From the NCBI GenBank assembly GCA_020632395.1, contig JACKFQ010000001.1:136762-200761 (forward strand): 64,000 nucleotides of DNA, read 5' to 3'. Shown one piece after another: positions 5,559 to 59,387 of this stretch (the stretch's first letter is position 1; every line of letters starts with the position of its first letter). Below the pieces are notes generated by a model. The model did not search any database. It was not told the origin of the DNA and was given only the letters and a program-made list of their open reading frames with translations. Both the position numbers and the translations under genes were made by a program. The DNA is from Candidatus Nomurabacteria bacterium. GTDB taxonomy: Bacteria; Patescibacteriota; Dojkabacteria; SC72; JAHDCA01.

Positions 5559-6923
5559 CTACTCTATCCAGACGCTTTTAAGGTTGACAAACTCGTGTAT
5601 ACCAAATGAACCTAATTCCCTTCCATATCCTGATCTTTTGACACCACCAAAAGGAAGACGCGGATCCGATCTGACCATCTGATTTATAAAAACATTACCC
5701 GCTTCTATTTGAGGGATCAGCTGCTCAGCCCTTTCATGATCTTTAGTCCAGATAGATGCACCTAGTCCATATTCTGTATCATTTGCGATCTGTATAGCTT
5801 CATAATCTTGTGAAAAGGTCTGTATCGCTGCTACAGGACCAAATGTCTCTTCTCCCATGACGGGCATATCAGGTGTGACATCAACGATTACAGTAGGTGA
5901 ATAGTAGTTACCTGGTTTTTCGATCCTTGTGCTTCCAATTACTACTCTACCACCCATTTTGATACTTTGTTGGATCTGTAGGTCAATGCTTTCAAGGATC
6001 GATGCTGTAGCAAGTGGACCTAAGTCAGTATCTTCTTTTAAGGGATCCCCGACCTTCAATCTGTTCAATTCATCTAGAAAAGCATCAAGAAATCTCTGGT
6101 ATGCTTTCTCCTGGATTAGAAATCTTTTTGCAGCAATGCAACTTTGCCCGTTATTGATCATCCTTGATCTTACAGCTACCTCTGCAGCTTTACGGATATC
6201 TGCATCAGGAAATACAATGAACGGATCACTTCCACCCAGCTCCATAACACTCTTCTTTTGTACACTTCCAGCTATACTTCCAATAGCTGAACCTGCCTTA
6301 GTACCGCCTGTGACAGAAACACCTTTGATATAGTGGTTGTGTAACATCTGCTCAACGCCGACTCTATCTGTAAGCACATTTAGATAGAGATCTTCAGGAA
6401 ATTCTGATCGGGTGAATAGCAATTCAAGAAATTGACTGAATTGTGGGATATTTGAGGCATGCTTTATTACGATACTATTCCCAGCAAGTAGAGTAGGTAT
6501 AGCAAATCTCACAACCTGCCATAGTGGGAAGTTCCAAGGCATAACACCTAAGATCACACCTAAGGGTTCTTTTGTAACATAGGTACGAAAAGCCTCTGTA
6601 TCGATCCGTTCAATAGAGAGTAGCCCAGAAGCCCTTTCTGCATAATACTCAATACACCAGATGGATTTGTCGATCTCAGCAAAAGATTCTTTGATCGGTT
6701 TGCCCATTTCTAGACTGATCAATTCTGCGATCCCTTGTTTGTTATCAGATAGCACCTTAGAGAATTTTAATAGAAGATCCGATCGTGTTTTGATATTTTC
6801 TTTTTTCCATTTACCTTGTGCAAGTTGAGAGCGATCAAGTATCTGATCTATTTCTGAAGATGTGTGGGTCGGATATTCGCCTAATAACTCGTTATTATGT
6901 GGGTTAATACTTTTTTGTGTCAT
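5559..6923 (-). CDS. NAD(P)+-dependent aldehyde dehydrogenase
   Basis: 454 aa. It has the ELGGSDP motif, the catalytic Cys in NNGQSCIAAKRF and a Rossmann GxxxxG segment. Confidence 0.8.
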   Translation of the reverse strand: MTQKSINPHNNELLGEYPTHTSSEIDQILDRSQLAQGKWKKENIKTRSDLLLKFSKVLSDNKQGIAELISLEMGKPIKESFAEIDKSIWCIEYYAERASGLLSIERIDTEAFRTYVTKEPLGVILGVMPWNFPLWQVVRFAIPTLLAGNSIVIKHASNIPQFSQFLELLFTRSEFPEDLYLNVLTDRVGVEQMLHNHYIKGVSVTGGTKAGSAIGSIAGSVQKKSVMELGGSDPFIVFPDADIRKAAEVAVRSRMINNGQSCIAAKRFLIQEKAYQRFLDAFLDELNRLKVGDPLKEDTDLGPLATASILESIDLQIQQSIKMGGRVVIGSTRIEKPGNYYSPTVIVDVTPDMPVMGEETFGPVAAIQTFSQDYEAIQIANDTEYGLGASIWTKDHERAEQLIPQIEAGNVFINQMVRSDPRLPFGGVKRSGYGRELGSFGIHEFVNLKSVWIE

Positions 6924-17930: not shown

Positions 17931-18998
17931 CTAAACGATCTTGGCAAGTCCTAAACACTCATTGCTACAATAAAAAACGACACTTTGACCAGGTGCAGGT
18001 GCCCATTGAGCATCTGAAAATGTCAGTAGATATCGCCCGTTGTTCTCAGCTAAGGGAGATATCTCCGTTCGACTTAGTTTTCCTCGATATCTTATCATCG
18101 CCTCAAGATCTTGTATCTTGGTCAGATCTGTACTAGTACTGATAGTATGGACTTCCTCTACGATTATCTGTTTCTGCCATAGAGTAGGGTGATCTCTGCC
18201 CATACCTACATAAAGGGTATTTGTTTTGACATCTTTGCCTACTACAAAGTACGGTTGCGATGTACCTCCGATCCCGATACCTCTCCGTTGACCCAATGTG
18301 TAAAACCACACTCCGTCATGTTCTCCAACTACATGTCCTGTATCAATATCCACGATATCGCCTTGTTTAACGGTTAGATTCATTGACAGGAATTGCTTGA
18401 TATCAACTTCACCAATAAAACAGATACCTTGGCTATCAGGTCGATCTGCTGAGGCTAGGTCGTTCTCATGTGCAATTTGACGCACCTCCTTTTTGGTCAG
18501 ATCTCCCAATGGGAATATAGTACTTGATAGCTGAATAGAATTAAGTGCAGATAAGAAATATGTCTGATCCTTTGTTGTATCGACAGCTTTGAACAATCGT
18601 CCCAGATCTGTTTTTGAGTAGTGACCTGTGGCGATCATATCGGCACCGTCATCTAGAGCTTTGTTTAGAAAAGCTTCAAATTTAATATATTTATTACAAA
18701 GAATATCGGGATTTGGGGTGTTGCCTAAACGATACTGCTCAAAGAAATCTTCGATGACAGCCTCCCTATACTCTCGCTCAAAGTTGTAGATCTTAAGCTT
18801 AATTTGTAATTTCTCGCATACAGCTGTGACAAATTGAATATCTTCCTCCCACGGGCAGTTGTCCTCAAGGCCATAACCTTCTCCTGACCAGTTCTTCATA
18901 TAGACACCGATAACCTCATAACCTTGTTTTAATAAGAGATATGCAGCAACAGAACTATCTACACCGCCTGACATCCCTACGTATACTTTCTTTTTCAT
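17931..18998 (-). CDS. mnmA: tRNA-specific 2-thiouridylase MnmA
   Basis: PP-loop SGGVDSSVAAYLL, together with length and architecture. Confidence 0.85.
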   Translation of the reverse strand: MKKKVYVGMSGGVDSSVAAYLLLKQGYEVIGVYMKNWSGEGYGLEDNCPWEEDIQFVTAVCEKLQIKLKIYNFEREYREAVIEDFFEQYRLGNTPNPDILCNKYIKFEAFLNKALDDGADMIATGHYSKTDLGRLFKAVDTTKDQTYFLSALNSIQLSSTIFPLGDLTKKEVRQIAHENDLASADRPDSQGICFIGEVDIKQFLSMNLTVKQGDIVDIDTGHVVGEHDGVWFYTLGQRRGIGIGGTSQPYFVVGKDVKTNTLYVGMGRDHPTLWQKQIIVEEVHTISTSTDLTKIQDLEAMIRYRGKLSRTEISPLAENNGRYLLTFSDAQWAPAPGQSVVFYCSNECLGLAKIV

Positions 18999-19551: not shown

Positions 19552-20163
19552 TTACATTGAATCTATTGCATTCATAACACCTTGTACTTTTTCTCCCCAT
19601 GTAGGACATTGATAACAGTAGTATTTTTCGATCTCTTCAGGTGTGTCAGCCCCTTTATCAAAATATCCAGCTCTTAAGAATGTAGCATGAAATTCTATCG
19701 CTTCATCATAATTCGCAAAAGATTTTGCATTTCCTTGACCGCCCATCCCTGCATAATTGTAGGGTCTGTAGTTATATTTCCCACCACTAGACTCAATTAT
19801 TGAGATAGCTGGCATGAGGTTATAAGGTAGATCGTACTTCTTAGCCATTCGTACAAATGTTTCAGCATGAGCAGATAAAGGAGCACCTCTTTTTTCAAGA
19901 TAGGCTCTGATCTTTTCGACCTGTACTTTGTTCAGGTCGATATCTCTCAAACGTAGTTCGATCTCAGCAGAGTTCTTGGTCTCGTAAGCCACCTTATATT
20001 CTTCTAGCGCTATAGTTGCCTCGTAGGCATCGATAGCATACACAGGTTGTGATGAGTAGAACCTATTATTCTGTGGATTTTCTATACCTAAGGAGGCAAA
20101 GTTACCAAGTATCAGTGTACCTGCAGTGATTGATAATATTCTCTTTTTTAGTGATAATGTCAT
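19552..20163 (-). CDS. Secreted glucosaminidase/lysozyme-like cell-wall hydrolase (paralog of 30605-31267)
   Basis: Signal peptide. The ISIIESSGGKYNY...TPEEIEKYYCYQCPTWGEKV block aligns with 30605-31267. Confidence 0.4.
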   Translation of the reverse strand: MTLSLKKRILSITAGTLILGNFASLGIENPQNNRFYSSQPVYAIDAYEATIALEEYKVAYETKNSAEIELRLRDIDLNKVQVEKIRAYLEKRGAPLSAHAETFVRMAKKYDLPYNLMPAISIIESSGGKYNYRPYNYAGMGGQGNAKSFANYDEAIEFHATFLRAGYFDKGADTPEEIEKYYCYQCPTWGEKVQGVMNAIDSM

Positions 20164-24305: not shown

Positions 24306-25829
24306 ATGAAAGATATAAAACTTCCTACAGTTACTAAGAAAGCAAACTCATCTGATGATTTTGCCACAAATGTCACTATCCAAAATAGTAGTAATACTCC
24401 TTTGAGAACAGTTAAGCCACCTTCAATTACCGGCAAAACTAACGATGATCCTTCACAAAATGTTCCCAAATCTCCTACTGTATCGATCTCAACAAAAAAA
24501 AGTTCCGCTCTAGTAGATGATGCACGACCAAAAAAGGGCGGAACCTCTTCAAAGATCCAATCCGAAGAAAAAAATACTGCTGAATTTCAGAATGACCAAG
24601 CCTCAGTTGCCGACAATAATAATGATACCAATCACCTGAATATTATTACTGATCTACAAAATCCAGATACCAACTCTTCTCACCAAGTCTCAAGTAGTGA
24701 TGATCAGCAACAAGACGCTATACAGCCAAAAACTAATGCCCAACAAAATACCTCTACACAACAACAAACCAACCCACAGGCCACTCCACAGCAACAGATA
24801 GATCAACAACCAGTCTCTAACCACCAGCAAACCGCTACCCAGAAAGCCCCCAATCAGCAAGTACACAATCAGCAAGTAAACAATCAGCAAAACCAAAGTC
24901 AGCAACAACGATCAAGTGGTGCACAGATGCAACAAGGTACTGTAGGGAATATGGGTCTTGGAGGGTTTGGTGGAGGATTGGGTGGAGGATTGGGTGCAGG
25001 ATTTGGTGGAGGCAATACAGGAGGTTTTAGAAATGATCTCGGCGGAGGTGGATTTGGTTCCAATTCCATAGGTGCAGATCCGTGGGCAGATCCGTGGTCT
25101 GACCCTTGGAGCGCAGATCCCCGAGGAGGTCAGCAAAATTGGGGTAATCCTAATGCAAATCAACCACCAAAACAGCTGACACCTGCTGAAAGGGTTGAAA
25201 TGATCGAAAAAGTATATCAGGATGTGTTAAATAGAAAGCCAGATACTCGTGATATTAACTACTATAAATACAGCACACTTGGAGAGAATGAGATCATAGC
25301 TCAACTACTGGTAGGTAAAGAGCACGTCCAATTATTGCAGGATGGGAAGGATTATAAAAAGATGAAGGATAGAGCGGAACAAGCTGAGACTAGAGTGAAA
25401 ATGCTAGAGGGACAAATAAAAGATCAGCTAGAAGAATTCAGTAGTCTCGCAGATCTTCTTGAGGAAAAGAATCGATTAATACAACAGTTACGTAGAGATC
25501 AAAACAATCCATACAGCTTCCAAAGCCCCAAATCCTCAATACCACAGTTTATAGAGAATCATGATACTGGTAAAAAGCTCGATGTTGAGTCAACAACAAA
25601 CGACCAATACGAATCACTCCCGACTGATGATTCTAATACAACGACTCTTGATCCGGATAATCGATCTGGTTCAGATCCAGTTGGTCTACATACAGAAAAG
25701 GAGGTTGACACTTCATCAGTAGCCGGTTTCTCAGTTCCGATGTTTTCTGACAGTATTGGGAGTTCAGCGATTAAAAAACGAACAAAAAGCTTGAAAGACA
25801 AGATAATAGAACTTTTCTCTGTGCAGTGA
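24306..25829 (+). CDS. Low-complexity protein (Q/N-rich, Gly-rich GLGGFGGG tract, DPW repeats) with a DUF4214-like domain and a coiled coil
   Basis: 507 aa. Residues ~130-210 are Q/N/T-rich. A G/F/L-rich tract comes next, then DPWADPWSDPWSADP, then IEKVYQDVLNRKPDTRDINYYKY (DUF4214-like). Confidence 0.5.
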   Translation: MKDIKLPTVTKKANSSDDFATNVTIQNSSNTPLRTVKPPSITGKTNDDPSQNVPKSPTVSISTKKSSALVDDARPKKGGTSSKIQSEEKNTAEFQNDQASVADNNNDTNHLNIITDLQNPDTNSSHQVSSSDDQQQDAIQPKTNAQQNTSTQQQTNPQATPQQQIDQQPVSNHQQTATQKAPNQQVHNQQVNNQQNQSQQQRSSGAQMQQGTVGNMGLGGFGGGLGGGLGAGFGGGNTGGFRNDLGGGGFGSNSIGADPWADPWSDPWSADPRGGQQNWGNPNANQPPKQLTPAERVEMIEKVYQDVLNRKPDTRDINYYKYSTLGENEIIAQLLVGKEHVQLLQDGKDYKKMKDRAEQAETRVKMLEGQIKDQLEEFSSLADLLEEKNRLIQQLRRDQNNPYSFQSPKSSIPQFIENHDTGKKLDVESTTNDQYESLPTDDSNTTTLDPDNRSGSDPVGLHTEKEVDTSSVAGFSVPMFSDSIGSSAIKKRTKSLKDKIIELFSVQ

Positions 25830-25851: not shown

Positions 25852-26160
25852 ATGGAAATTCATATCGGCGAAAAAATAAAAGAATATAGGGAAAAAGCTG
25901 GAGTATCACAAAAGAAATTGGGTATGTCTCTTGGATTATCTGATAAAGCTATAAGCGCATATGAAAGCGGAAGAACACTTCCACCACTCGAAACCCTTAA
26001 TCGTATTGCTGTAGAACTTAAACGGCCCTTATCCTTCTTCTTATCTGACAGCAACAATATACGCTTAGACGAGAGATTAGAAAGTATCGAGAATACACTA
26101 AAAAAGCTTACAAAGGAGATAAACAAGCTGAAAAAGGAATTGCGATACCCCGAAGAATGA
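25852..26160 (+). CDS. XRE-family HTH transcriptional regulator with a C-terminal coiled coil
   Basis: QKKLGMSLGLSDKAISAYESGRTLP is a canonical HTH_XRE. Confidence 0.6.
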   Translation: MEIHIGEKIKEYREKAGVSQKKLGMSLGLSDKAISAYESGRTLPPLETLNRIAVELKRPLSFFLSDSNNIRLDERLESIENTLKKLTKEINKLKKELRYPEE

Positions 26161-26163
26161 GCA

Positions 26164-26991
26164 TCATTCTGTACCGTTTGTGAAAGAGTCGAGTTCAGCA
26201 GAGGACAACGGCTCTTTTTCTTGTCTTTGAGTGGTTATACTGTCGATCTCCGTTCGTAACTGATTGGCTTTGGCTTCATCCTGAGCTTCAATTGCAGAGT
26301 ATAATTGCACATTTGTATCCCAGTATGATCTGATAAGCTGTAAATACTCCCTTGTGACAGTTAAATGTGCACTATATGGTTCAATGATCAGACGCGCATC
26401 ATCTAAAAGTCTATGGCATTTAGTGACTTCTGATGAGATGATCGCCGAAGTTTCTTTAAGATCGATACCATCATAACAGGTAAGTGCGCTCTGATAGGAA
26501 TTGTTGAAATCGATCGTAAACCTCTCCCTATCTATCCGTTCAAGAGTTATACGGTATTTTTCTGTGGCACTATCAAGTCGTATCAATTGATTTTCAGCAT
26601 CAAATATATACTCATCAGCTAGATCTAGAGTGGCGATCTGCTCGTATTCATAATATATCTGTTCGTTTATCAGGATGGCTTGAGTATAAAGCGCAGAAAG
26701 ATCAGCCAGTAAGTTCTTTCTCTCATCAAGATCAGATGCTGAAACAAGGGTCTCGTTCAAAGAGGTGATATTGTCATCGATCAGATTAAGCTTTTCATTT
26801 CCATCTGATATCTGTGAGGAAAGCTGTTCGTAAGTTTCCACATCAACCGTGATAAGTCCATCCTGACGATCTATGACCCATACAATTAGTGCGATCACAA
26901 AGGCTGTAAATATCAGAGTCGTGAGATAAATTACAACCATCAATCTTCGATTCATTATATTTGGGGTGGTTTGAGCCAGATCTTGAGCCAT
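26164..26991 (-). CDS. Membrane-anchored coiled-coil protein (operon gene 5)
   Basis: 275 aa. N-terminal TM (LMVVIYLTTLIFTAFVIALIVWVI) followed by a long helical region. It overlaps the upstream gene by 37 nt. Confidence 0.4.
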   Translation of the reverse strand: MAQDLAQTTPNIMNRRLMVVIYLTTLIFTAFVIALIVWVIDRQDGLITVDVETYEQLSSQISDGNEKLNLIDDNITSLNETLVSASDLDERKNLLADLSALYTQAILINEQIYYEYEQIATLDLADEYIFDAENQLIRLDSATEKYRITLERIDRERFTIDFNNSYQSALTCYDGIDLKETSAIISSEVTKCHRLLDDARLIIEPYSAHLTVTREYLQLIRSYWDTNVQLYSAIEAQDEAKANQLRTEIDSITTQRQEKEPLSSAELDSFTNGTE

Positions 26992-27644
26992 GTTAAGAAC
27001 TTTTTCCCTAAGAAATAGATAATAACGAGAAAAACTATGGCAAGTAATATCAACACGATAACTCGAATGATCACCAACATAACTCTATTGGGATGACTTG
27101 GAGTGACTAAGAGGTTCTCATCTATGTCGATACGTACAGTGTCTGTTGAGGAATAGTTTCTACCATAGCCCCAATCTGTCACGTTGACCGTTATGGTATA
27201 TGGACCTGATTGAGCTGGTTTGAGGTAACCCGTGACTGTGGTCTCTGTATCTTTTGGTAGTGGGAAGAAATTCTTATACTTTGTATCGTCTATACTCACC
27301 CCATATCCATATTCCCATGTTACCTCTGTCCTGCTAGCGTCGATCTTTGAACGGATCGTTACTGTCAAAGGAACTTTTCCATTCCATGGTGATTGTGGAC
27401 CAACAGATATATCAACAAAAAATGGGTCTAGGATCTTACCATTCTCGTCTGTGGTTGTATCAATACTATCCATCTGTTCTGGAATATCAGGTGAATTATC
27501 GTAGACATTTTGATCTTGAAGAATTTCTTCCGCACCATCAGGTGGCGTATCATCTTTCTGTGCGGAAACAATAGAAGGATCAAACACCGTATTGAGCAAG
27601 ACTAAAAGTATCGGTATCGCTAACAGTAGAGACAAATTTTTCAT
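26955..27644 (-). CDS. Secreted PKD/Ig-like domain protein with a C-terminal TM anchor (operon gene 4)
   Basis: Signal peptide, PKD-like WEYGYG...TITVNVTDWGYG, and C-terminal TM VMLVIIRVIVLILLAIVFLVIIYFL. Confidence 0.45.
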   Translation of the reverse strand: MKNLSLLLAIPILLVLLNTVFDPSIVSAQKDDTPPDGAEEILQDQNVYDNSPDIPEQMDSIDTTTDENGKILDPFFVDISVGPQSPWNGKVPLTVTIRSKIDASRTEVTWEYGYGVSIDDTKYKNFFPLPKDTETTVTGYLKPAQSGPYTITVNVTDWGYGRNYSSTDTVRIDIDENLLVTPSHPNRVMLVIIRVIVLILLAIVFLVIIYFLGKKFLTWLKIWLKPPQI

Positions 27645-27654
27645 AACTATTTTC

Positions 27655-28077
27655 TTATAATAACTTACCTACAGCTTTTGCAAATGTATAAAGTAGTTCC
27701 GAAACTTCGCTTTTATTAGGTGCGTACTGCTCATGTACTACCTTGTTTCGTATCTTGTGAGCATCCCATATCTTATTATACTCGATAGAAGTGAATAAGT
27801 ACTTTGCTTTTTTTAGATTATCTCCAAAAGTACCTGAATTTCCGAAATATGAATGAAAAGAATCAGCAGTTATATTATCCGCTCTTATTACAAGATCTCT
27901 TAACTCAGCTTCTGAAGTAGCATTGATAGAAGATAGGGCGCGTAGCATATCTAGCTTATCGAGTATGAGCCTCTTTTTGGGAGAAGCTTTTTTCATAATG
28001 AAACCCAGAAATACTCCACCACCAACTATTACTAAAAGTAGTATAAGGATTACATTATTTACGAGTAAGCCGTCCAT
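27655..28077 (-). CDS. Small membrane-anchored protein with a C-terminal HEPN/DUF4145-like Rx4H motif (IRNKVVHE) (operon gene 3)
   Basis: 140 aa. N-terminal TM, then a soluble helical domain containing KIRNKVVHEQY. Confidence 0.35.
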   Translation of the reverse strand: MDGLLVNNVILILLLVIVGGGVFLGFIMKKASPKKRLILDKLDMLRALSSINATSEAELRDLVIRADNITADSFHSYFGNSGTFGDNLKKAKYLFTSIEYNKIWDAHKIRNKVVHEQYAPNKSEVSELLYTFAKAVGKLL

Positions 28078-29902
28078 AGATCTTCTCGGAGAATAATTGA
28101 ATTAAAAATATCATTCCTACAAATAGTATCAGATTGATAATATTTATCATATGACCCCACCACCATGGAAATGAGATCTGAGGTGTCACAGAAACAAAGT
28201 CTTGTAATGTTGTACCGCGATCACTTACAGTATTCACCTGGATGTCTAGATCTTCAGGAGCTTTTGTAGAAATGGGTATACTATGTGTGAAAGTCTGACC
28301 GGGTAGGATGATAAGATCCGGTAGCGTCTCTTTCAGAACCCCATCTATAAGGATATTTGCAGATCTGACTATTGTGCTTCCATTATTCAATATCTCAATA
28401 GTAAATGATGAATTTGTATCAAATATGCTTGCTTCTTGGGTATAAGCGGATAATCCTATCGAATCGATAGGGGAAAAGGGTTGGTTCAATGGTGTTAACG
28501 AAAGCTCCTTAATGGTGTAGCTGTTGAATTGTGGATATGTAGGATCCAAACCTCTATACATCAGGTTGATCCTACTTAGTACAAAGTCATTGCTTTTGTT
28601 ATTACCATAAAGCTCAGCTTCATAAGTATCTAACTGCATCCATCCTGTGAGAGGATCCCAATACTCGACCCAAGTATGAGTAGTGCCAGGAGTTTTGTCA
28701 TCCATGATATCAAGTGTGTAACCAATCACTTGTCGTGAAGGAACTTTATTTTCGCGAAGGAGGCTTAGAGTGAGATCGACATAATCTTGTGGAGTAGCCT
28801 CAGTATTTCCTTTCAAGAGAACATCTCCACCCAAGCGATAAGTAAGCTCAGTTGATCTCGAAATGTCTAAGGACTCTGTCACCTTTGAGTTCACAGAATC
28901 GATAAATCTACTCCTCTCACCCTGCGTACTTTCACCCCAGTTCGTGATCGTAGGGAGATCTTCAATGTTAGGATCGGTTATTGACCAATAACCAGTTTCT
29001 ATGCTGTATAAAGGATTCAAGAACGGATTTGATAGTAGAGGTTCTGAGATGATCTTTTTAGTAATATTACCCAAAATAGATACTGATACTGTAGAAGAAG
29101 GCTGTAGAGTATACATCAGATCGAGATTACCCTCGCTATCTTCGTTTGATGAATCAGGAAGGGGGGTTATCTGCGTGATCGACAATAATTGTGATCTGTC
29201 TGACGGAGGAAGTGATATATGAAAACTTTTAGAAATACTGTCTGGATTGGTCAGTTCATGCGTTAATATGAATTTATACGGAATACTTTCGCCAGTCAGT
29301 AGATAGATATTCCATCTCGGTTCCTCGATGAAGTATTTTGTATAGTCAGTACGTGAGGATCTATCAGAGTAAGGACTGAGTAGATGAAGCTCGGTAGGCT
29401 CGGGGATCAATATCTCAGCTGAGGAGATCGAAGTACCTCCGAAATTAGTTGGAAGAGTGATCATTGTATCTTGTGGATCGTCCTTACTACTAAATTCATA
29501 GGTTGTTTGGATCAGTATGGGATCATTCTTTCGTGCGATCTCATTATTTAGATCGATCGTCACCTCAGTACCACTTGTGATCGGTTTAAGTTTTGTTTCT
29601 AAATATTTTGAAGATCTTCTCACCAAAATCTTAGATGGGGATGTGGTAGGCAACGTGATGGTTATGGTACGTATTGGAATTGGTGAATCACTACTATTTG
29701 AGACCACAGTTAGAAGAGTTCCATCGACTGTACCTCCAGGATCCCTTAGGTCATAGGTTAATGAGGATGAGATCGTCACACTATCTTCTACAGCAACTAC
29801 TTGTTGTGGAAGGATGTAAAAGAGTATTAAAAACAGAACGGAAAGACCTTTAGATCTCAATAGTGATCCCAGAATTTGCATATAACCATTCAAATTTTTC
29901 AT
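28055..29902 (-). CDS. Cysteine-free transglutaminase-like-domain surface protein with a C-terminal TM anchor (operon gene 2)
   Basis: 615 aa, no Cys anywhere. The HTWVEYWDPLTGWMQLDT block matches the TGase-core His/Asp region. N-terminal signal, C-terminal PWWWGHMINIINLILFVGMIFLI. Confidence 0.45.
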   Translation of the reverse strand: MKNLNGYMQILGSLLRSKGLSVLFLILFYILPQQVVAVEDSVTISSSLTYDLRDPGGTVDGTLLTVVSNSSDSPIPIRTITITLPTTSPSKILVRRSSKYLETKLKPITSGTEVTIDLNNEIARKNDPILIQTTYEFSSKDDPQDTMITLPTNFGGTSISSAEILIPEPTELHLLSPYSDRSSRTDYTKYFIEEPRWNIYLLTGESIPYKFILTHELTNPDSISKSFHISLPPSDRSQLLSITQITPLPDSSNEDSEGNLDLMYTLQPSSTVSVSILGNITKKIISEPLLSNPFLNPLYSIETGYWSITDPNIEDLPTITNWGESTQGERSRFIDSVNSKVTESLDISRSTELTYRLGGDVLLKGNTEATPQDYVDLTLSLLRENKVPSRQVIGYTLDIMDDKTPGTTHTWVEYWDPLTGWMQLDTYEAELYGNNKSNDFVLSRINLMYRGLDPTYPQFNSYTIKELSLTPLNQPFSPIDSIGLSAYTQEASIFDTNSSFTIEILNNGSTIVRSANILIDGVLKETLPDLIILPGQTFTHSIPISTKAPEDLDIQVNTVSDRGTTLQDFVSVTPQISFPWWWGHMINIINLILFVGMIFLIQLFSEKIYGRLTRK

Positions 29903-30581
29903 GCTTACGTAGTATCTGTTTTATTAAGGGGGTTTTCAACGTGATCCCGTAATTTTGTACTATTTTTTCCCAAACAACTTTCCTATAACTAACAACATCT
30001 TTGTATAACGGATTTCGTACAACTTCCTGTTTTGCATTCTTTCTGATTACATAATATGCCATACCATTCATCTCGTCTAGAACTGGTGTAAGTTTCGCAT
30101 CCATAGGTATAACCTCTGAGATGATGAAAGATGATTGTCGTGTGTTTATAAGTGATACAGCATAACCCTTTGGTATGAGGATCTTCTGATCACGTTTGAC
30201 CTTAGAAACGATAACATCATTCTCTCCTTTAATGTAATTCTGGACAATGATCGTACCTCCTCCAGAAAGAACCTCCATGATCCTAGGAGTATCTGCGCGA
30301 AGTGCTCGTGTTTTGATGAATTCGATGCCTGCTAGATTTTGTGGGATTACATATATGTTTACTTTGAATCCCTTCTCCTCAAACACCCCCTCATGATCTA
30401 ATGAGTAAAATTTCGTATAACAGTGCTCGGGATAAGAAAGCTCTCGATTTAGAAGTTGTTCTCGAATATCGTCGATCGAGAACATTTTAGATCTTTTCAC
30501 AGTGAGGTCTTGAGATATCAACGAGCCCTGATCATATACTAGGTCAAAACCTGCAGACTTTTTAAGGTCTATTTTAGCCAT
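29850..30581 (-). CDS. Hypothetical protein (possibly cupin-like), first gene of the five-gene minus-strand operon
   Basis: 243 aa, overlaps the next gene by 53 nt. No diagnostic motif. Confidence 0.35.
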   Translation of the reverse strand: MAKIDLKKSAGFDLVYDQGSLISQDLTVKRSKMFSIDDIREQLLNRELSYPEHCYTKFYSLDHEGVFEEKGFKVNIYVIPQNLAGIEFIKTRALRADTPRIMEVLSGGGTIIVQNYIKGENDVIVSKVKRDQKILIPKGYAVSLINTRQSSFIISEVIPMDAKLTPVLDEMNGMAYYVIRKNAKQEVVRNPLYKDVVSYRKVVWEKIVQNYGITLKTPLIKQILRKHEKFEWLYANSGITIEI

Positions 30582-30604
30582 GTGTGTATTATATCACAAT
30601 GGGA

Positions 30605-31267
30605 CTATAGGTCTTTTGTATATGAGTCAAGTTCGATCATGAAATTGTTGACACCGTTAGCCCAAGCATGTGCTGGATTTAGGCCACATGGAGGACAGTA
30701 TGTTGCTTCAATATCAAAAGGTGTTAGATCTGTCCCGTATCCTATGGCTAAACGCTGTGTGACAGTCGTGATACCTTGTCGCCAACTAGTGAAATAGCTC
30801 CAATCCCGCGTAGGATCGCCTTTCCACCCCCATGCATTGTTAGATCTATATGGAATGAGATTGCCAAATGCTGATTCAACACCTGAAATAGCAGCTACCA
30901 ATCGCCAATCCAATCCAACCTTATCTGCTTCAGTGACAAATACATCTGCATAAGGATACATAGGGCTTTGATAATCTATAAGGAAGTTTCTCATTGCAAT
31001 GATCCGTGGATCTGTTGTAATTATTTGAGGAAGGTCGTTAGGATCTACTGCTTGACGATTTGTGATCCCAGCTACTGCTTCTGCAGAATTTTCACGATCT
31101 GCGATAGCAGATAGGTACTGAGTAGATGTCGACCTTTTTTCTGAAGCTAGAGTTATCAGGACTGATTCGATCCGTGGTTTGAGATTTGGAGACCAAAATT
31201 GAACGAATGTTATGATAAGGATAAATATCAGTATGAAGTTTTTTGCTATTGCGACTATCCTACGCAC
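30605..31267 (-). CDS. Secreted glucosaminidase/lysozyme-like cell-wall hydrolase (paralog of 19552-20163)
   Basis: N-terminal TM/signal. ISGVESAFGNLIPY...TPFDIEATYCPPCGLNPAHAWANGV aligns with 19552-20163. Confidence 0.4.
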   Translation of the reverse strand: MRRIVAIAKNFILIFILIITFVQFWSPNLKPRIESVLITLASEKRSTSTQYLSAIADRENSAEAVAGITNRQAVDPNDLPQIITTDPRIIAMRNFLIDYQSPMYPYADVFVTEADKVGLDWRLVAAISGVESAFGNLIPYRSNNAWGWKGDPTRDWSYFTSWRQGITTVTQRLAIGYGTDLTPFDIEATYCPPCGLNPAHAWANGVNNFMIELDSYTKDL

Positions 31268-31337: not shown

Positions 31338-34300
31338 TTGACTCTTATTCAATATCAGTATAATGAATTATACGAATTTATGAAATTTACACATCTACAT
31401 CTACATACAGAATATTCTTTGCTTGATGGGACGATAAAGATCCCTGCATTGATCGAGAAACTTAAAGCCTCAGGTATGGATGCTTGTGCTATCACGGACC
31501 ATGGTGTGATGTATGGAGCCTACAAGTTTTACAAGATGATGAAGGAAGCGGGTCTAAAACCGATCATAGGTTGTGAGATATATGTCGCCCCTAGAGATCA
31601 TCATATGAAAGAAGCCGGAATAGACAATAAGTACAACCATATGGTTTTACTTGCAAAGGATCTCGAGGGTTATAAGAACCTTATAAAGATACTCTCTATT
31701 TCTCATTTGGAAGGCTTCTATTACAAACCTCGAATAGATGTAGAGCATCTCCGAAAGTATTCGAAAGGATTAATTGCCACATCTGCATGTCTTGGAGGTG
31801 TTGTTGCCAAAGATCTATTGAACGGACAGTACGATAAGGCTAAGAACAATGCCATTATGTACAAGGAGATGTTTCCCGATAGATTCTATATCGAGATCCA
31901 GCGAAACGGTCTAAAAGAACAAGATGATGTGAATCCACAGTTACTTCAAGTAGCGGAGGAACTTTCACTTCCTATTGTTGCCACCTGTGATGCTCACTAT
32001 CTGGATAGGGATGATTCAATGATCCAGGAGATACTATGGTGTATTGCTGACGGAAAAACATTAGATGACCCGACACGTAGAAGTTATGGAACTCAGGAAC
32101 TGTATCTAAAAACTTCAGAGGAGATGGAAGAGCTTTTCTCAGATCTTCCTGAAGCCTTAGAAAATACTCAAAAGATAAAAGAGCAGATAGAAGAATTTGA
32201 TATCACCTTCGGTAGGGTAGAACCGATATTTGATGAATTACCAGAAGGAGAGAACTCTGAGACTTTCTTGCGTAAGCTAACATACGAAGGAGCAGAGAAG
32301 AAATACGGCAAGATAACTCGAGAGTTGCAAGAAAGGATAGATTTTGAGCTATCTGTAATCAATGACAAAGGATATAACGATTATTTCTTAGTAACGAGGA
32401 TGTTCGTGAAATTCTGCAGGGATAATGGAATTGTTGTCGGAATGCGAGGCTCAGGATGTGGATCTGTTGTTGCTTACTGTACTGATATTACCCATCTTGA
32501 GCCGATATCGTGGGAGCTATACTTCGAGAGATTCTTAAATCCTGAGAGAAACTCACCACCAGATTTTGACCTTGACATTGCTGATGCAAGACGCGACGAA
32601 GTGATCCAATTTGCGATCGATCATTTTGGAGAAGAGAATGTAAAACAGATAGGTACATTCAGTAAATTACAGACAAGACAAGCTATCCGTGATGTATCTC
32701 GAGTATTAGGGATAGATCTTAAGGTCGCCGATCAGCTAAGTAAAATGGTAGAGATCCTTTTCGGTAAGGCTAGGAGCATCGATTATATGATCGAGAACAA
32801 CATTGAGTTTGCAGATCTTATCAATTCATCACCTGAACTTCAAAGAATGGCTGAAATAGTTCGGAAGATCGCTGGACTATGCAGAGGTGTGTCCACTCAT
32901 GCTTGTGGTGTTGTTATTACTCCCACACCAGTATCTGACTACGTACCTCTACAGAGAGATTCAAAGAACGAAGGTATCGGAATGACACAATATGAGATGT
33001 TCGACCTTGAACCTGTTGGTCTGATGAAGTTTGACTTCTTAGGATTGAGGAATTTAGCTGTAATTGGTGAAGCATTAGAAAAAATTAAAGATACCAGAGG
33101 TATTGATGTAGACCTAATGAGTGTTGACCCAAATGACGAAGATACGTTCAAGATAATTCAACGAGGACATACGGTAGGTATTTTCCAACTTGAGAGTGAA
33201 GGTATGAGAAAAACTATAAAAGGTTTGAAACCAGCTACTCAGGAAGAGATCTGTTACCTCCTTGCGGCATATCGACCAGGTCCAATGCAATTTATCCCAG
33301 AGTACATCTCTGTAAAGGATGGAGATAAGGAAGCCGAATATCTAATGCCTGAACTAGAGCCGATCTTGAGGATCACAAACGGAGTTATCACGTATCAGGA
33401 ACAGGTCATCAGAATAGCGGTAGATATTGCAGGATATTCGATGGGTGCTGCCGATATGCTTAGAAAAGCTATGGGTAAAAAATTGATGGATGTAATGGAG
33501 AAGGAAAAGCCGAAGTTTATATCAGGAGCGGTTGAAAAAGGTTTTAATCAAGCAAGTGTTGATGCTCTTTGGGAAAGACTTTTACAATTTGCAAATTATG
33601 GTTTTAATAAAGCTCATAGTGCATCTTATGCCTTGGTTTCGTATTGGACAGGTTACCTTAAAGCACACTATCCGCTAGAGTTCATGGCCGCACTACTAGA
33701 AGGGGATCTGGACAATTTCGATCGTGTTGTGATCGATCTGCAGGAGTGTGAGAGATTGGGAATCGCTGTTTTACCACCGGATATAAACTTGAGTGATGCA
33801 AAATTCACTATCGAAGATGAAGAGAACATTAGATTTGGAATGGCAGCGATAAAAAATGTCGGAGAGGACGTTATTCACCAGATCGTTAAAGAAAGAAAGC
33901 AGAACGGACCATTTCTCAACTTTGATGACTTCTTGTTCCGTATAGTCAAAAAACGTATCCAGAAGCGAACAATCGAATATCTTATACAAGCCGGTACAAT
34001 GGATACCCTTGGTGATCGCAATCAACTGATCTTTAATCTGAGTAATTTGTATGAAAGATATAAGTCAGAATATCAAGACGCTGAGCGAGGTCAGTTCGAT
34101 CTTTTTGGTAATGGTGAAATAAAGACACATATCGAAACCCCTACAGTTCTGCAAGAAGCGGAGCCAACGACTGTTCATCAACGTTTAGAATGGGAGAAAG
34201 AACTTCTCGGGCTGTATCTTACTAGTCACCCTCTTGATGATCTGCATGATTTTTTCGAATCAAAAGGTGTTATCCAGATCTCGAGGTTGATACACGAACC

Positions 34301-57915: not shown

Positions 57916-58716
57916 TCAGTTGATGTGATATTTGACGTTCCCTAGCGTTTTTAGTGGAACCCACCAATGTTTTCTTGTCAACCTAAAGTTGTCAAAGAAG
58001 ATTGAGTACTTTCTATCGACAGGTAGCTTTTCGTTCCAATCCAGATGATCTGTGTAATTGTTATCAATTACTTCGACCTTTGAAGTTATGTCGTGATCGA
58101 AAGGTATTGAACCCGAAATAAACTTTGATCTTCTTATAAGCGCTTGTGTATTTGGAAATATCGAGATCTGTCCACGAGGATATCCTGACATATTCCACAA
58201 GTTACTCTTATTACCAACAAATTGTGAGTCAGATACTTCTATTTTGGAATCAGGAACTAAATTATCAATAGCAGAACCTGTATGTCCTGCAGTATTATTT
58301 TCAAAATAGCATTTATCGAATATAACTACTTCTGTGGATTGATTTGAAACTGCTCCGCCACAGAAGACAGATGTATTGTTCGTAAAACGACAATTCTCAA
58401 ATATAACTGAGGATCTACCAGAAATAACAACTGCACCTCCATCAACTATTTCATATACGGTACCTTTCTTATAATGATAAGAAATATCTGTTCGTCTAAG
58501 AAATCTCAAAGACCCAGTATTACCACCAATGAAATGTAAATTTCTTATATGAAAATTCTCGCAGTTATGGATTGAAAGTAAATGAGTTACTTTATTATGA
58601 CCGTTGATGACAAAATTCTGACCATCAAATATTTGGTTATCACGATCTGATATAGAAAATGCATTGTATGAATAAGTATTTGCATGCCAATCAGAGGACA
58701 ATTTCATAGTAGTCAC
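57916..58716 (-). CDS. Right-handed parallel beta-helix repeat protein (pectate-lyase fold)
   Basis: 266 aa with repeating GG(N/A)... and NN(T/S) beta-helix rungs (FIGGNTGS, CGGAVSNQ, NNTAGHTGSAIDN). Confidence 0.45.
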   Translation of the reverse strand: MTTMKLSSDWHANTYSYNAFSISDRDNQIFDGQNFVINGHNKVTHLLSIHNCENFHIRNLHFIGGNTGSLRFLRRTDISYHYKKGTVYEIVDGGAVVISGRSSVIFENCRFTNNTSVFCGGAVSNQSTEVVIFDKCYFENNTAGHTGSAIDNLVPDSKIEVSDSQFVGNKSNLWNMSGYPRGQISIFPNTQALIRRSKFISGSIPFDHDITSKVEVIDNNYTDHLDWNEKLPVDRKYSIFFDNFRLTRKHWWVPLKTLGNVKYHIN

Positions 58717-59387
58717 TTATCAGTCAAATAAAGTAGTGACTTGATCGGAATAGGTATAAAACCGATTGTGATCTTGAATTCTTTAACGATAACCTTGTAG
58801 GCTTCAATATTTATACAGTTCATTAATGCTTGATGATCCAATGTACGTTTTTGTATATCATCTTTATATATTCGACCAAATGAATTATGAGTTAATTGTT
58901 TTACTGCATATAAAGATTCTGCTGATAGGCTATTGAATTTGATACCTAAAAGCTCTGTTTCGATCAACTCTTTTTCGGGAATTGATGCATAAAACTTCGG
59001 GAAGAGCTCTATCCTTAAACGACCTTTATCATATATGAATGGAGTAAATAAAATTTCTAGATCACATGAATCTTGCTTGAAGAAACGAGTATATCTGTTT
59101 GACGAATACCTAATTAAGATATTGGAGAAAGGCATGCTTCTACCTATAAATGTTGATCTGCTATAACCTCTTTCGATCAACTGATCCTCAATCTCGGATC
59201 TATATGCCATATCTGCAATGGTATCGATATCCTTGATCTTTCTATAGTAATTCACATTCTGGGTGTGAGATGTCAATCCAACCGATCCGAGTATGAGTAT
59301 ATTGGGTAAATTGGTTGTGATATTTGAAAAATCCTTAAGCGTTTGTAGCACTAATTCGTTCTGATCTTTGAAATCTTCTATATCCAT
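58713..59387 (-). CDS. Hypothetical protein, possibly nucleotidyltransferase-fold (GS...DID)
   Basis: 224 aa. ILILGSVGL...KDIDTIAD is weakly NTase-like. It overlaps the beta-helix gene by 4 nt and starts ~45 bp from the IS end. Confidence 0.3.
   Translation of the reverse strand: MDIEDFKDQNELVLQTLKDFSNITTNLPNILILGSVGLTSHTQNVNYYRKIKDIDTIADMAYRSEIEDQLIERGYSRSTFIGRSMPFSNILIRYSSNRYTRFFKQDSCDLEILFTPFIYDKGRLRIELFPKFYASIPEKELIETELLGIKFNSLSAESLYAVKQLTHNSFGRIYKDDIQKRTLDHQALMNCINIEAYKVIVKEFKITIGFIPIPIKSLLYLTDK

Follow-up and report, generated by a model that had tools for sequence, protein, structure and literature searches.

The described proteins closest to the locus analysed here come from several families. 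Bacterial transglutaminase-like cysteine proteases and transglutaminases (PF01841) are represented by the periplasmic domain of TgpA from Pseudomonas aeruginosa (6g49) and by a protein from Cytophaga hutchinsonii (3isr), and the architecture of TgpA as a whole is presumably a multi-TM DUF3488/DUF4129 frame. Some MoxR operons also contain a transglutaminase-like protein. In erythrocyte protein 4.2 and in Rad4/XPC the transglutaminase fold is catalytically dead, having lost its Cys, and serves a binding or scaffold role. Further points of reference are the archaeal phosphoglucose isomerase cPGI (PF06560), the HEPN RNases and BatD of the Bacteroides aerotolerance (Bat)/MoxR-associated operons.

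Layout and conservation of the cassette

In the window, that is the whole analysed stretch of 64,000 nucleotides, the first-pass annotation had proposed one operon encoding a membrane/surface assembly. Its ORF coordinates, overlaps of 53, 23 and 37 nt and one 10-nt gap agree exactly with the ORF list:

29850 to 30581, minus strand: GPIL, first gene, cupin, ORF of 243 aa
28055 to 29902, minus strand: TGL, transglutaminase-like, ORF of 615 aa
27655 to 28077, minus strand: HEPNL, HEPN-like, ORF of 140 aa
26955 to 27644, minus strand: IgTM, Ig-like, ORF of 229 aa
26164 to 26991, minus strand: CC, accessory fifth gene, ORF of 275 aa
30588 to 30596, minus strand: extended -10 promoter box TGATATAAT, read from the sequence, ending 6 nt before the GPIL ATG

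With a probability of about 0.5, we propose that the products of this operon form a surface complex that binds or scaffolds without catalysis and has partners in the cytoplasm. A Kyte-Doolittle scan located the claimed membrane anchors in four of the five products, GPIL being the one without a TM segment, and the topology of the cassette products obeys the positive-inside rule. The encoded mass is mostly extracytoplasmic and membrane-anchored. As a description, surface assembly is incomplete, since two of the five products are cytoplasm-facing and one of these two has an RNase-type motif.

Among the relatives, 61 loci extend at least 3.3 kb past the cupin gene. All 61 contain the HEPN-like and Ig-like genes, and 59 of them contain TGL, the remaining two showing ambiguous bases in a TGL-sized gap. 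The gene order in the relatives is cupin, TGL, HEPN-like, Ig-like, with overlaps of 47 nt (66/69 loci), 8 nt (the mode) and 4 nt (57/65). About 60 independent metagenomic loci repeat this order and these overlaps, even though their 615-aa protein is only 22-26% identical to the window copy, and the arrangement is thus more than chance. TATAAT was found at most 20 nt upstream of the orthologous GPIL ATG in 56 of 64 distinct loci, and the promoter box is almost always TG(G/A)TATAAT at 6-7 nt from this ATG (consensus TGnTATAAT; distinct loci, n=64). Judged from the position of the box, from which the transcription start was deduced, the cassette mRNA probably has no leader or almost none. Altogether, the comparison shows a vertically inherited operon across the sampled, tiny-celled Dojkabacteria (WS6), the genes of which are translationally coupled by conserved overlaps. 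Since gene order is conserved in the relatives, the operon claim was not refuted, and the co-conserved unit has its own conserved promoter exactly at the upstream boundary that had been assigned to it.

A fixed set of five genes could not be upheld. A gap that could accommodate a fifth gene was found in only about 6/63 loci, with CC orthologues in L001, L002, L008/L015 and L011, and the HEPN-like gene is missing where TGL is fused to the Ig-like protein. This fusion of the TGL C-terminus to IgTM was observed in four 50%-identity cluster representatives (P0141, P0143, P0144 and P0154). The fusions occupy the same genomic slot, the cupin is kept there while the HEPN gene is absent, and the pattern of loop and TM puts both ectodomains outside. 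As the HEPN gene is missing from this fusion subclade, the invariant core consists of the cupin, TGL and the Ig-like protein. CC is confined to the window's subclade and showed no significant match in Pfam, NCBIfam or PADLOC. It comprises, with its N-terminus inside, one TM (residues 19-37) after RR and a helical ectodomain of about 235 aa that contains a YW(D/E)T motif and a conserved Cys...Cys pair.

Purifying selection acts on every gene, with a median dN/dS of 0.06-0.10 each, values which are rough since dS is near saturation (about 1.1-1.6), and the cassette proteins are not decaying. The mean pairwise identity is highest for the cytoplasmic cupin (0.59) and lowest for the ectodomain proteins (0.36-0.38), a gradient as expected for exposed surfaces.

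Since the whole neighbourhood is syntenic in the phylum (uvrC-dnaE ... XRE-DUF4214-L19-iPGM), gene order alone is weak evidence, and the case for the operon as a system is built on overlaps, promoter and gene fusion. With about 15 kb in synteny, including dnaE, uvrC, rplS and iPGM, and with the cupin labelled 'glucose-6-phosphate isomerase family protein' by NCBI, a genuine phosphoglucose isomerase and unrelated envelope genes might be adjacent only through Dojkabacteria genome collinearity. This explanation is extremely improbable in view of the invariant overlaps, the one conserved promoter, which lies at the first gene, the fusion of TGL and IgTM in one subclade, the lost metal ligands of the cupin and the reported absence of upper glycolysis in WS6.

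The transglutaminase-like protein and the cupin

A transglutaminase-core-like block (HTWVEYWDPLTGWMQLDT) without Cys had been noticed in the 615-aa product, and both observations proved right: Pfam Transglut_core matches with 37.3 bits (cutoff 23), and Pro371 occupies the canonical Cys position, with no Cys in 62 orthologues. The AF2 model (alignment of 90 sequences; pLDDT 91.5, pTM 0.84), the Kyte-Doolittle scan and the alignments place the following features on TGL:

Residues 1-30, minus strand: signal/anchor (AF2 model, Kyte-Doolittle)
29393 to 29779, minus strand: beta-sandwich 1, residues 42-170 (AF2 model)
29054 to 29389, minus strand: beta-sandwich 2, residues 172-283 (AF2 model)
28490 to 29014, minus strand: transglutaminase-like core, residues 297-471 (AF2 model, Pfam)
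28790 to 28792, minus strand: codon of Pro371, the nucleophile position (alignment to TgpA 6g49, column counts)
28676 to 28678, minus strand: His409, retained (alignment)
28628 to 28630, minus strand: Asp425, retained (alignment)
28187 to 28459, minus strand: beta-sandwich 3, residues 482-572 (AF2 model)
Residues 582-614, minus strand: C-terminal TM with K/R tail (Kyte-Doolittle)

A profile search of the PDB matched TGL to TgpA 6g49 (E = 7.5e-5), with Rad4 among the weak matches, and the best Foldseek match was the putative cysteine protease 3isr (E = 5e-9). Among the 62 orthologues, the Cys column comprises P, S, A, N, D, T or Q and never C, with Ser in 17/62, the His is kept in 55/62 (N or S in 7/62) and the Asp in 54/62 (Glu in 8/62). 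The larger family includes 492 cluster representatives that align with TGL over the full length at E <= 1e-30, and 74 of the best 150 distant relatives retain the motif A-x-C-x-E-[FY]-T-D-L-F and the Cys-His-Asp triad. According to these alignments, the nucleophilic Cys was lost in the Dojkabacteria branch, and more distant family members keep the triad.

The cupin GPIL matches Pfam GPI PF06560 with 33.8 bits (cutoff 20.7), and its AF2 model (pLDDT 91.6) is best matched in Foldseek by the cPGI of P. furiosus/T. litoralis (E = 1e-12, target-normalised TM 0.71-0.75). In the alignment with cPGI, the GHFH motif (His88, His90) is deleted, His136 is replaced by Val and Glu97 by Arg/Lys, and there is no invariant His among 26 orthologues. 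By its sequence, GPIL is a cytoplasmic cupin derived from an archaeal-type phosphoglucose isomerase with the metal ligands gone, a putative pseudo-PGI. At Tyr152, His158 and Tyr160, which we take to be the phosphate-binding positions of cPGI, the aligned GPIL residues are Ile, Leu and Pro. The model shows two extensions beyond cPGI, an N-terminal one of about 55 aa and a basic, helical C-terminal one of about 50 aa. The strongest conservation lies outside the barrel in the C-terminal hairpin and helices, which are basic and very conserved (YYVIRKNAKQE.V.NP.Y; T.KT..KQ..RK.EKF.W), and many polar residues are invariant (D62, E87, K90, K133, N146, Y176, Y177, R180 and others). The NCBI label of a glucose-6-phosphate isomerase, the one apparent housekeeping assignment in the cassette, fails as a functional description, with the metal ligands lost and upper glycolysis reported absent in WS6 in the literature.

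The absence of Cys in TGL and the loss of all His ligands in the cupin suggest that both are pseudoenzymes. Nonetheless, TGL may have residual or altered catalysis, with His409 and Asp425 largely conserved and Ser at the Cys column in 17/62 orthologues, and the cupin might work as an enzyme without metal. Metal-free cupin enzymes exist, and both proteins might still be active, GPIL as a metal-independent sugar(-phosphate) isomerase/epimerase and TGL with another nucleophile or with only His and Asp, for example in processing or glycosylating surface proteins. The many invariant polar cupin residues and the strong purifying selection would fit such activities. They are very doubtful all the same, since varying residues occupy the Cys position, His and Asp are exchanged in 7/62 and 8/62 orthologues, the residues aligned with the cPGI phosphate-binding positions differ, and cupin conservation does not peak on the barrel.

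The HEPN-like and Ig-like proteins and the flanking genes

The 140-aa product had been described as a membrane protein, and its TM anchor was found, while its identity can be refined to a predicted cytoplasmic HEPN domain that is tethered to the membrane and in which RNxxxH is invariant. According to the Kyte-Doolittle scan, the N-terminus is outside, followed by a single TM (residues 9-27), six K/R and a cytoplasmic helical domain that includes the following motif:

27733 to 27750, minus strand: RNKVVH of HEPNL, within the invariant motif W..HK.RN..VH

TM-trimmed orthologues match HepT-like (13/47), HEPN_RiboL-PSP (8), Swt1 (7) and Apea (6), more rarely DUF4145 (2), Csm6_HEPN (1) and pEK499_p136 (1), with isolated non-HEPN matches. 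No HEPN family was matched at the Pfam cutoff, and the prediction of a HEPN-like domain is based on the sub-threshold matches together with the motif.

The tethered HEPN domain would also suit an outside-in sensor-effector with a logic like that of Ire1 or an abortive-infection system, in which phage adsorption, host contact, wall damage or a similar envelope event is detected by the surface proteins, which then switch on a HEPN RNase, with the cupin as ligand-binding regulator. The polar residue after the Arg of the invariant RNxxxH is typical of catalytic HEPN domains, seven HEPN-clan Pfam families match, the domain is predicted to be cytoplasmic beside the tails, an XRE regulator adjoins the cassette, and the HEPN gene is coupled via the 8-nt and 4-nt overlaps. 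We nevertheless regard this as quite unlikely: the cupin, TGL and IgTM remain in the fusion subclade without the HEPN gene, the cassette has a constant position in the core genome of all relatives sampled, whereas defence islands are patchy, and the HEPN matches stay below the Pfam cutoff. PADLOC gave no match for the HEPN protein or three further products and only a marginal one for CC (E = 0.017), and NCBIfam profiles gave none for any of the five. Accordingly, NCBIfam, PADLOC and the literature yielded no characterised secretion, pilus, S-layer or defence system, in agreement with the first-pass annotation as regards the first three.

IgTM comprises a signal peptide, a beta-sandwich ectodomain, the C-terminal TM already annotated (191-209) and a cytoplasmic tail with a conserved end:

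26964 to 26978, minus strand: W-L-x-P-P at the tail end of IgTM, conserved across orthologues

Its assignment as a PKD-domain protein was rejected, as a weak PKD match occurred in 2/52 orthologues compared to BatD in 22/52. A BatD/DUF11-like beta-sandwich fits better, the BatD matches being weak and sub-threshold.

Three further genes flank the cassette:

30605 to 31267, minus strand: membrane-anchored lysozyme/glucosaminidase-like gene, upstream of GPIL on the strand of the cassette
25852 to 26160, plus strand: XRE-family HTH gene (HTH_3), convergent
24306 to 25829, plus strand: DUF4214-like protein with coiled coil, co-oriented with XRE, sub-cutoff Pfam match

The XRE regulator was identified as annotated (HTH_3, 49.7 bits); it occurs in 60/61 loci, its 3' end mostly abutting or overlapping the cassette end. 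The DUF4214 assignment applies to 8/8 orthologues tested, while the window copy is below the cutoff (15 bits). This copy shows a large Q/N/G-rich expansion, with 507 aa compared to 185-239 aa in 5/8 relatives examined. A lysozyme/glucosaminidase-like neighbour does lie upstream, while its description as a glucosaminidase paralog hangs on the paralog at 19552-20163 and its Pfam Glucosaminidase score of 29.3 bits (cutoff 30.2). Between this neighbour and GPIL, 71/75 related loci contain a YggT gene (YGGT 35.4 bits in L001), and the ORF list of the window contains none. Since the conserved promoter sits between the upstream gene and GPIL, the upstream gene may be a separate transcription unit.

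These same-strand neighbours raise the possibility of a cell-wall/division accessory or structural surface layer, in which the cassette, the lysozyme-like protein and YggT build or remodel the envelope, with TGL binding peptidoglycan stem peptides or with TGL and IgTM as an anchored surface lattice. The transglutaminase fold includes wall-peptide peptidases, and TGL is large, beta-sandwich-rich, C-terminally anchored and fast-evolving. We consider this unlikely, given the promoter between the cassette and these neighbours, the window without YggT at the site and the lack of LysM, SH3 or PG_binding domains in the cassette products (Pfam, NCBIfam). Furthermore, one would expect a lattice protein to be expressed from a strong signal of its own, yet the TGL start codon is buried 47 nt inside the cupin gene.

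Proposed function and comparison with known systems

Co-conservation, overlaps, promoter and TGL::IgTM fusion point to joint action of the cassette products. In the non-catalytic complex that we favour, the ectodomains of TGL and IgTM would cooperate on the outer membrane face as a binding or scaffold module, and the dead transglutaminase cleft of TGL would be a ligand pocket that accommodates, for instance, a peptide of the wall or a surface molecule of a partner or host. The cupin, with the HEPN protein where present, would hold or read the module from inside via the short conserved cytoplasmic tails. Most lineages add the tethered cytoplasmic HEPN protein with its intact RNxxxH, and the window's subclade also has the helical ectodomain protein.

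With cPGI, GPIL shares the cupin fold, whereas it lacks the metal ligands, adds the extensions and belongs to a phylum reported without the pathway. HEPNL shares Rx4H, the Asn after the Arg and a helical domain of about 95 aa with the HEPN RNases (HepT toxins, Swt1, RiboL-PSP, Apea, Csm6 HEPN), but differs by its N-terminal TM tether, by the absence of an MNT antitoxin, CARF or other usual partner and by its location in a core-genome envelope operon. IgTM has the signal peptide, DUF11-like beta-sandwich and C-terminal TM of BatD and is much smaller, and no MoxR ATPase, DUF58, VWA (BatA/B) or TPR (BatC/E) gene was found at any cassette locus examined.

TGL shares the alpha/beta core, the triad His and Asp and the extracytoplasmic location with the TgpA/3isr-type proteins. 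In contrast to these, it lacks the nucleophilic Cys in 62/62 orthologues and has no MoxR or DUF58 partners, and compared to TgpA it comprises two N-terminal and one C-terminal beta-sandwich with a single C-terminal anchor. TGL agrees with an uncharacterised family of anchored transglutaminase-like proteins of about 600 aa in domain order and in many structural residues that are invariant. Unlike TGL, these triad-keeping relatives are flanked by uvrA and uvrC and lack cupin, HEPN and Ig-like partners in the three loci examined. Protein 4.2 and Rad4/XPC are eukaryotic, cytoplasmic or nuclear and related to TGL by fold only, and they provide the analogy for its mode of action.

Gene order, overlaps and promoter of the cassette

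The first-pass annotation had read five minus-strand genes as one operon. ORF calling reproduced all five exactly, with overlaps of 53, 23 and 37 nt and one gap of 10 nt. The membrane segments listed below were predicted by a scan of hydrophobicity and charge.

Cassette features in the window
30596-30588 (-), extended -10 box TGATATAAT before the cupin ATG
30581-29850 (-), GPIL, a cupin resembling phosphoglucose isomerase, 243 aa, no TM segment
29902-28055 (-), TGL, transglutaminase-like surface protein, 615 aa, N-terminal signal or anchor, C-terminal TM segment followed by four K/R
28077-27655 (-), HEPNL, HEPN-like protein, 140 aa, single N-terminal TM segment followed by six K/R
27644-26955 (-), IgTM, Ig-like protein, 229 aa, signal peptide and C-terminal TM segment
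26991-26164 (-), fifth protein, 275 aa, RR followed by one TM segment

Since six K/R follow the N-terminal TM segment of HEPNL, its domain is placed in the cytoplasm, and since RR precedes the single TM segment of the fifth protein, the latter is predicted to be N-in with an ectodomain.

With the cupin product as bait, 80 metagenomic loci were collected; exact look-ups supplied further loci. The ORFs of the fetched loci were classified with jackhmmer. The cupin product is well conserved (159 clusters, 44-60% identity), and all labelled relatives found belong to Dojkabacteria/WS6. The gene order across the loci was near-invariant: uvrC< dnaE< / lysozyme-like> (YggT>) cupin> TGL> HEPN-like> Ig-like> / <XRE <DUF4214-like <rplS. 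For 61 loci the sequence extends 3.3 kb or more past the cupin gene. Every one of them carried the HEPN-like and Ig-like genes, and 59 carried TGL, the other two showing a TGL-sized gap with ambiguous bases. Since the whole region is collinear in Dojkabacteria, gene order alone proves little, and mere synteny without any system had to be considered.

The overlaps themselves are conserved, with -47 nt between cupin and TGL in 66 of 69 loci, mostly -8 nt between TGL and the HEPN-like gene among the related loci, and -4 nt between the HEPN-like and Ig-like genes in 57 of 65. In 56 of 64 distinct loci, an extended -10 box, TG(G/A)TATAAT, precedes the cupin ATG by 6-7 nt; as judged from its position, it marks the start of the transcription unit, which is probably leaderless. 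The transcript is predicted to begin with the A of this ATG and to reach the end of the Ig-like or the fifth gene. No clear Shine-Dalgarno motif was seen in the sequence upstream of the five cassette starts, so that coupling is argued from the overlaps alone. TATAAT boxes, some of them TG-extended, end 5-8 nt ahead of the window genes 5559-6923 (-), 17931-18998 (-) and 58713-59387 (-), and this short distance to the start codons points to frequent leaderless transcription in the genome of the window. TGnTATAAT directly ahead of an ATG offers a testable case of an operon expressed without a leader in a CPR lineage.

In four representatives of 50%-identity clusters (P0141, P0143, P0144, P0154), TGL and the Ig-like protein form a single polypeptide with three TM segments, in the order TGL, TM, basic loop, TM, Ig-like ectodomain, TM and WLKPP tail. 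In both fusion loci examined, the fusion gene occupies the genomic slot of the cassette, which lacks the HEPN-like gene there; the fusion loci represent one subclade.

TGL-Ig-like fusion genes
L096 4997-7609, encoding P0154
L097 5296-7776, encoding P0141

The fusion indicates that both ectodomains are extracellular and speaks for joint action of the two. The conserved overlaps, the -10 box and the fusion go beyond synteny and contradict the reading without a system, which was rejected. The operon assignment therefore stands, with conserved order, overlapping or abutting frames and a single conserved promoter. Altogether, these sequence features establish the cassette as a conserved, translationally coupled operon across the sampled Dojkabacteria, with anchored ectodomain proteins and cytoplasmic partners.

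Variable genes and neighbouring genes

The fifth gene was found in only about 6 of 63 loci. An upstream 95-aa gene of the YggT family (Pfam YGGT, 35.4 bits for the copy in the related locus L001) is present in 71 of 75 relatives and absent there in the window, where just 23 nt (30582-30604) separate the lysozyme-like and cupin genes. Since the fifth gene, the HEPN-like gene and YggT vary, the invariant core, as judged from gene content, is limited to the cupin, TGL and the Ig-like protein.

Copies of the fifth gene
window 26164-26991 (-)
L001 10808-11596
L002 8233-9024
L011 10623-11474

No family match was found for the fifth protein. Its predicted ectodomain carries a YW(D/E)T motif and a conserved Cys-x(20-21)-Cys pair, the latter consistent with an extracytoplasmic disulfide.

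The window holds two paralogous, membrane-anchored lysozyme/glucosaminidase-like genes with the motif DWRLVAAISGVES...NNAWGW. Only one of them, with a score of 29.3, approaches the cutoff of Pfam Glucosaminidase (30.2), and together they look like a lineage-specific family of wall hydrolases.

Lysozyme/glucosaminidase-like genes
window 19552-20163 (-)
window 30605-31267 (-)
L001 15487-16092

With lysozyme-like and YggT genes as neighbours, a role of the cassette in the wall, in division or in a surface layer could be proposed; this reading is weakened by the separate promoter of the cassette.

For dnaE in the window (31338-31380 (+)), the longest ORF begins at TTG 31338. Since the orthologue start MKFTHLHLH matches ATG 31380, the divergent spacer that separates dnaE from the lysozyme-like gene comprises about 112 nt, with promoter-like boxes for the lysozyme-like gene. 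The DUF4214-like/coiled-coil protein (24306-25829 (+)) has 507 aa compared to 185-239 aa in five of eight relatives examined; the extra length comes from a long low-complexity stretch, rich in Q/N and G, that is inserted into the N-terminal half, and the version in L011 has 445 aa. NCBI files the source genome under 'Candidatus Nomurabacteria bacterium', a label also carried by an entry identical to the 615-aa TGL, yet the 12-gene synteny and all labelled cupin relatives point to Dojkabacteria (WS6), and the label may be a misclassification.

Protein families and lost catalytic residues

TGL matched PF01841 with 37.3 bits (cutoff 23), and 6g49 was found as a PDB profile match. The AlphaFold2 model (pLDDT 91.5, pTM 0.84) predicts a signal or anchor followed by two beta-sandwich domains, the transglutaminase core (residues 297-471) and another beta-sandwich, and ends in a C-terminal TM helix. 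In Foldseek it came closest to 3isr, a putative cysteine protease from Cytophaga, with animal transglutaminases (TG2/TG3, FXIII) next; the beta-sandwiches gave generic matches to Ost1/ribophorin I and the N-domains of M1 aminopeptidases. By sequence and predicted fold, TGL belongs to the transglutaminase-like superfamily. The Cys-His-Asp triad of an active transglutaminase is incomplete: the nucleophile position is Pro371, in a column of P/S/A/N/D/T/Q with Cys in none of 62 orthologues, while His409 is retained in 55 and Asp425 in 54, with Glu in a further 8. A phage origin was rejected, since the structural matches in BFVD were generic beta-sandwiches alone with TM < 0.2. Homology of the Ig-like protein to the C-terminal beta-sandwich of TGL is unsupported (hhalign probability 30%, mostly in the TM region).

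An exhaustive profile search returned 492 full-length relatives of TGL at E <= 1e-30. Of these, the closest ~50 have no Cys, and in 74 more distant ones A-x-C-x-E-[FY]-T-D-L-F is retained along with the His and the Asp. Three Cys-bearing relatives sit between uvrA and uvrC without a cupin, HEPN or Ig-like partner, in the order LexA-UvrB-UvrA-TGL-UvrC-holin-like-SecG.

Cys-bearing TGL relatives, uvrA-uvrC interval
L092 675-2513
L093 6196-8133
L094 7001-8863
L095 3379-5241

Accordingly, in the sampled loci the Cys is missing where TGL sits with partners and present where it is alone. The family offers a case of pseudoenzyme evolution, with Cys-His-Asp kept in the lone uvrA-uvrC gene and the Cys lost in the lineage of the cupin/HEPN/Ig-like operon. 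In Dojkabacteria, uvrC is located just past dnaE, adjoining the cassette. This proximity may be a relic of synteny and gives no evident functional tie to excision repair; the fold of Rad4/XPC is that of a transglutaminase as well.

The cupin GPIL matched the Pfam family GPI (PF06560) with 33.8 bits at a gathering score of 20.7, and its AlphaFold2 model (pLDDT 91.6) was closest by Foldseek to the cupin phosphoglucose isomerase (PGI) of Pyrococcus/Thermococcus (1x7n, 1j3p and others; E = 1e-12, TM ~0.7). The alignment with P. furiosus PGI showed a deletion of the GHFH metal motif and the changes His136 to Val and Glu97 to Arg. His88, His90, Glu97 and His136 (P. furiosus numbering, positions from the alignment) are the metal ligands in this enzyme. 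GPIL therefore belongs to PF06560 by HMM and predicted fold and lacks the metal ligands of the family. Among 26 orthologues no His is invariant, and conservation peaks in the basic C-terminal hairpin and helices. [quoted passage not shown] 2016). Since the metal motif is lost, no His is invariant and the pathway is reported as absent, a true PGI was rejected and the label 'glucose-6-phosphate isomerase family protein' is very likely an over-annotation. GPIL is a repurposed cupin. Proteins of Dojkabacteria carrying this NCBI and IMG name, or 'phosphoglucose isomerase-like', are almost certainly not PGI, and metabolic reconstructions of Dojkabacteria should leave out GPIL as PGI.

Comparing sequences, two cassette proteins thus derive from enzymes and have lost catalytic residues. 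Residual enzymology of the cassette proteins is a less likely alternative reading. The median dN/dS was 0.06-0.10 across all seven families, both pseudoenzymes included, which is a rough value since dS is near saturation. Mean pairwise identity decreased from 0.59 for the cupin to 0.45 for HEPNL and 0.36-0.38 for the ectodomain proteins.

The cytoplasmic domain of HEPNL carries an invariant W..HK.RN..VH motif. Its RNKVVH (residues 110-115), with R, N and H invariant in 57 orthologues, agrees with the HEPN pattern Rx4-6H with a polar residue after the Arg. Without the TM segment, the orthologues (n=47) matched seven HEPN-clan Pfam families (HepT-like 13, RiboL-PSP 8, Swt1 7, Apea 6, DUF4145 2, Csm6_HEPN 1, pEK499_p136 1), with a best E of 7e-5 and all under the family cutoffs; non-HEPN matches were scattered. 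Sequence profile searches of the PDB with full-length and TM-trimmed HEPNL gave no match. A concatenated TGL-core and HEPN alignment used as query for both families gave one spurious match, with TM words probably dominating. HEPNL is probably a membrane-tethered HEPN domain with a catalytic-type motif. A sensor-effector centred on this domain would be an alternative reading of the cassette. It is made less likely by the fact that one subclade has lost the HEPN gene and that the cassette is distributed like core genome.

The 229-aa Ig-like protein had been called a PKD-domain protein. This assignment was rejected, since PF00801 did not match the window protein and matched only 2 of 52 orthologues at E >= 0.068. 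Weak matches to beta-sandwiches of the BatD/DUF11/MBG type were found instead, together with a conserved L..P....Y motif before the TM segment and a likewise conserved terminal, cytoplasmic W-L-x-P-P tail.

Proposed function and comparison with known systems

The ectodomains of TGL and the Ig-like protein would serve together in non-catalytic binding or as a scaffold, with conserved tails linking them to the cupin and, usually, to the HEPN protein; candidate roles are wall interaction, attachment to a host or partner, and signalling. A bolder and improbable reading, to which we give a probability of 0.12, is a new type of bacterial trans-membrane device universal in one CPR phylum. In this device, the dead transglutaminase and Ig-fold surface module would report extracellular binding (of a host cell, a wall fragment or a phage) via the short conserved tails to a ligand-binding pseudo-isomerase and a membrane-tethered HEPN RNase. 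If true, surface contact would be turned directly into RNA cleavage or RNA-level regulation in a cell with very few classical signalling systems. Genomes of Dojkabacteria comprise about 0.6-1.2 Mb, and their cell surface is almost uncharacterised. A cassette present in every sampled member, with mostly extracellular mass, is a concrete candidate for interaction with the wall or a host, and proteomics and cryo-ET could be directed at it.

The likeness to Bat/MoxR-associated envelope operons consists of the weak BatD matches, found in 22 of 52 Ig-like orthologues. Genes for MoxR AAA+, DUF58 and VWA (BatA/B) proteins were absent from every cassette locus examined, the fusion loci included, and with these partners missing such an operon was rejected. 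A search of PADLOC-DB v2 gave no match for the cupin, TGL, HEPN-like and Ig-like proteins, E = 0.017 only for the fifth, and generic HTH matches for the neighbouring XRE gene. Together with the unfitting core-like distribution, this speaks against a defence system, which was rejected. The earlier statement that no component matches a characterised secretion, pilus or S-layer system was upheld, and for the gene combination searches of Pfam/NCBIfam names, PADLOC and the literature found no described counterpart. All cassette proteins are divergent representatives of known superfamilies; what appears to be new here is an anchored transglutaminase-like surface protein that has turned into a pseudoenzyme and been joined to new partners.
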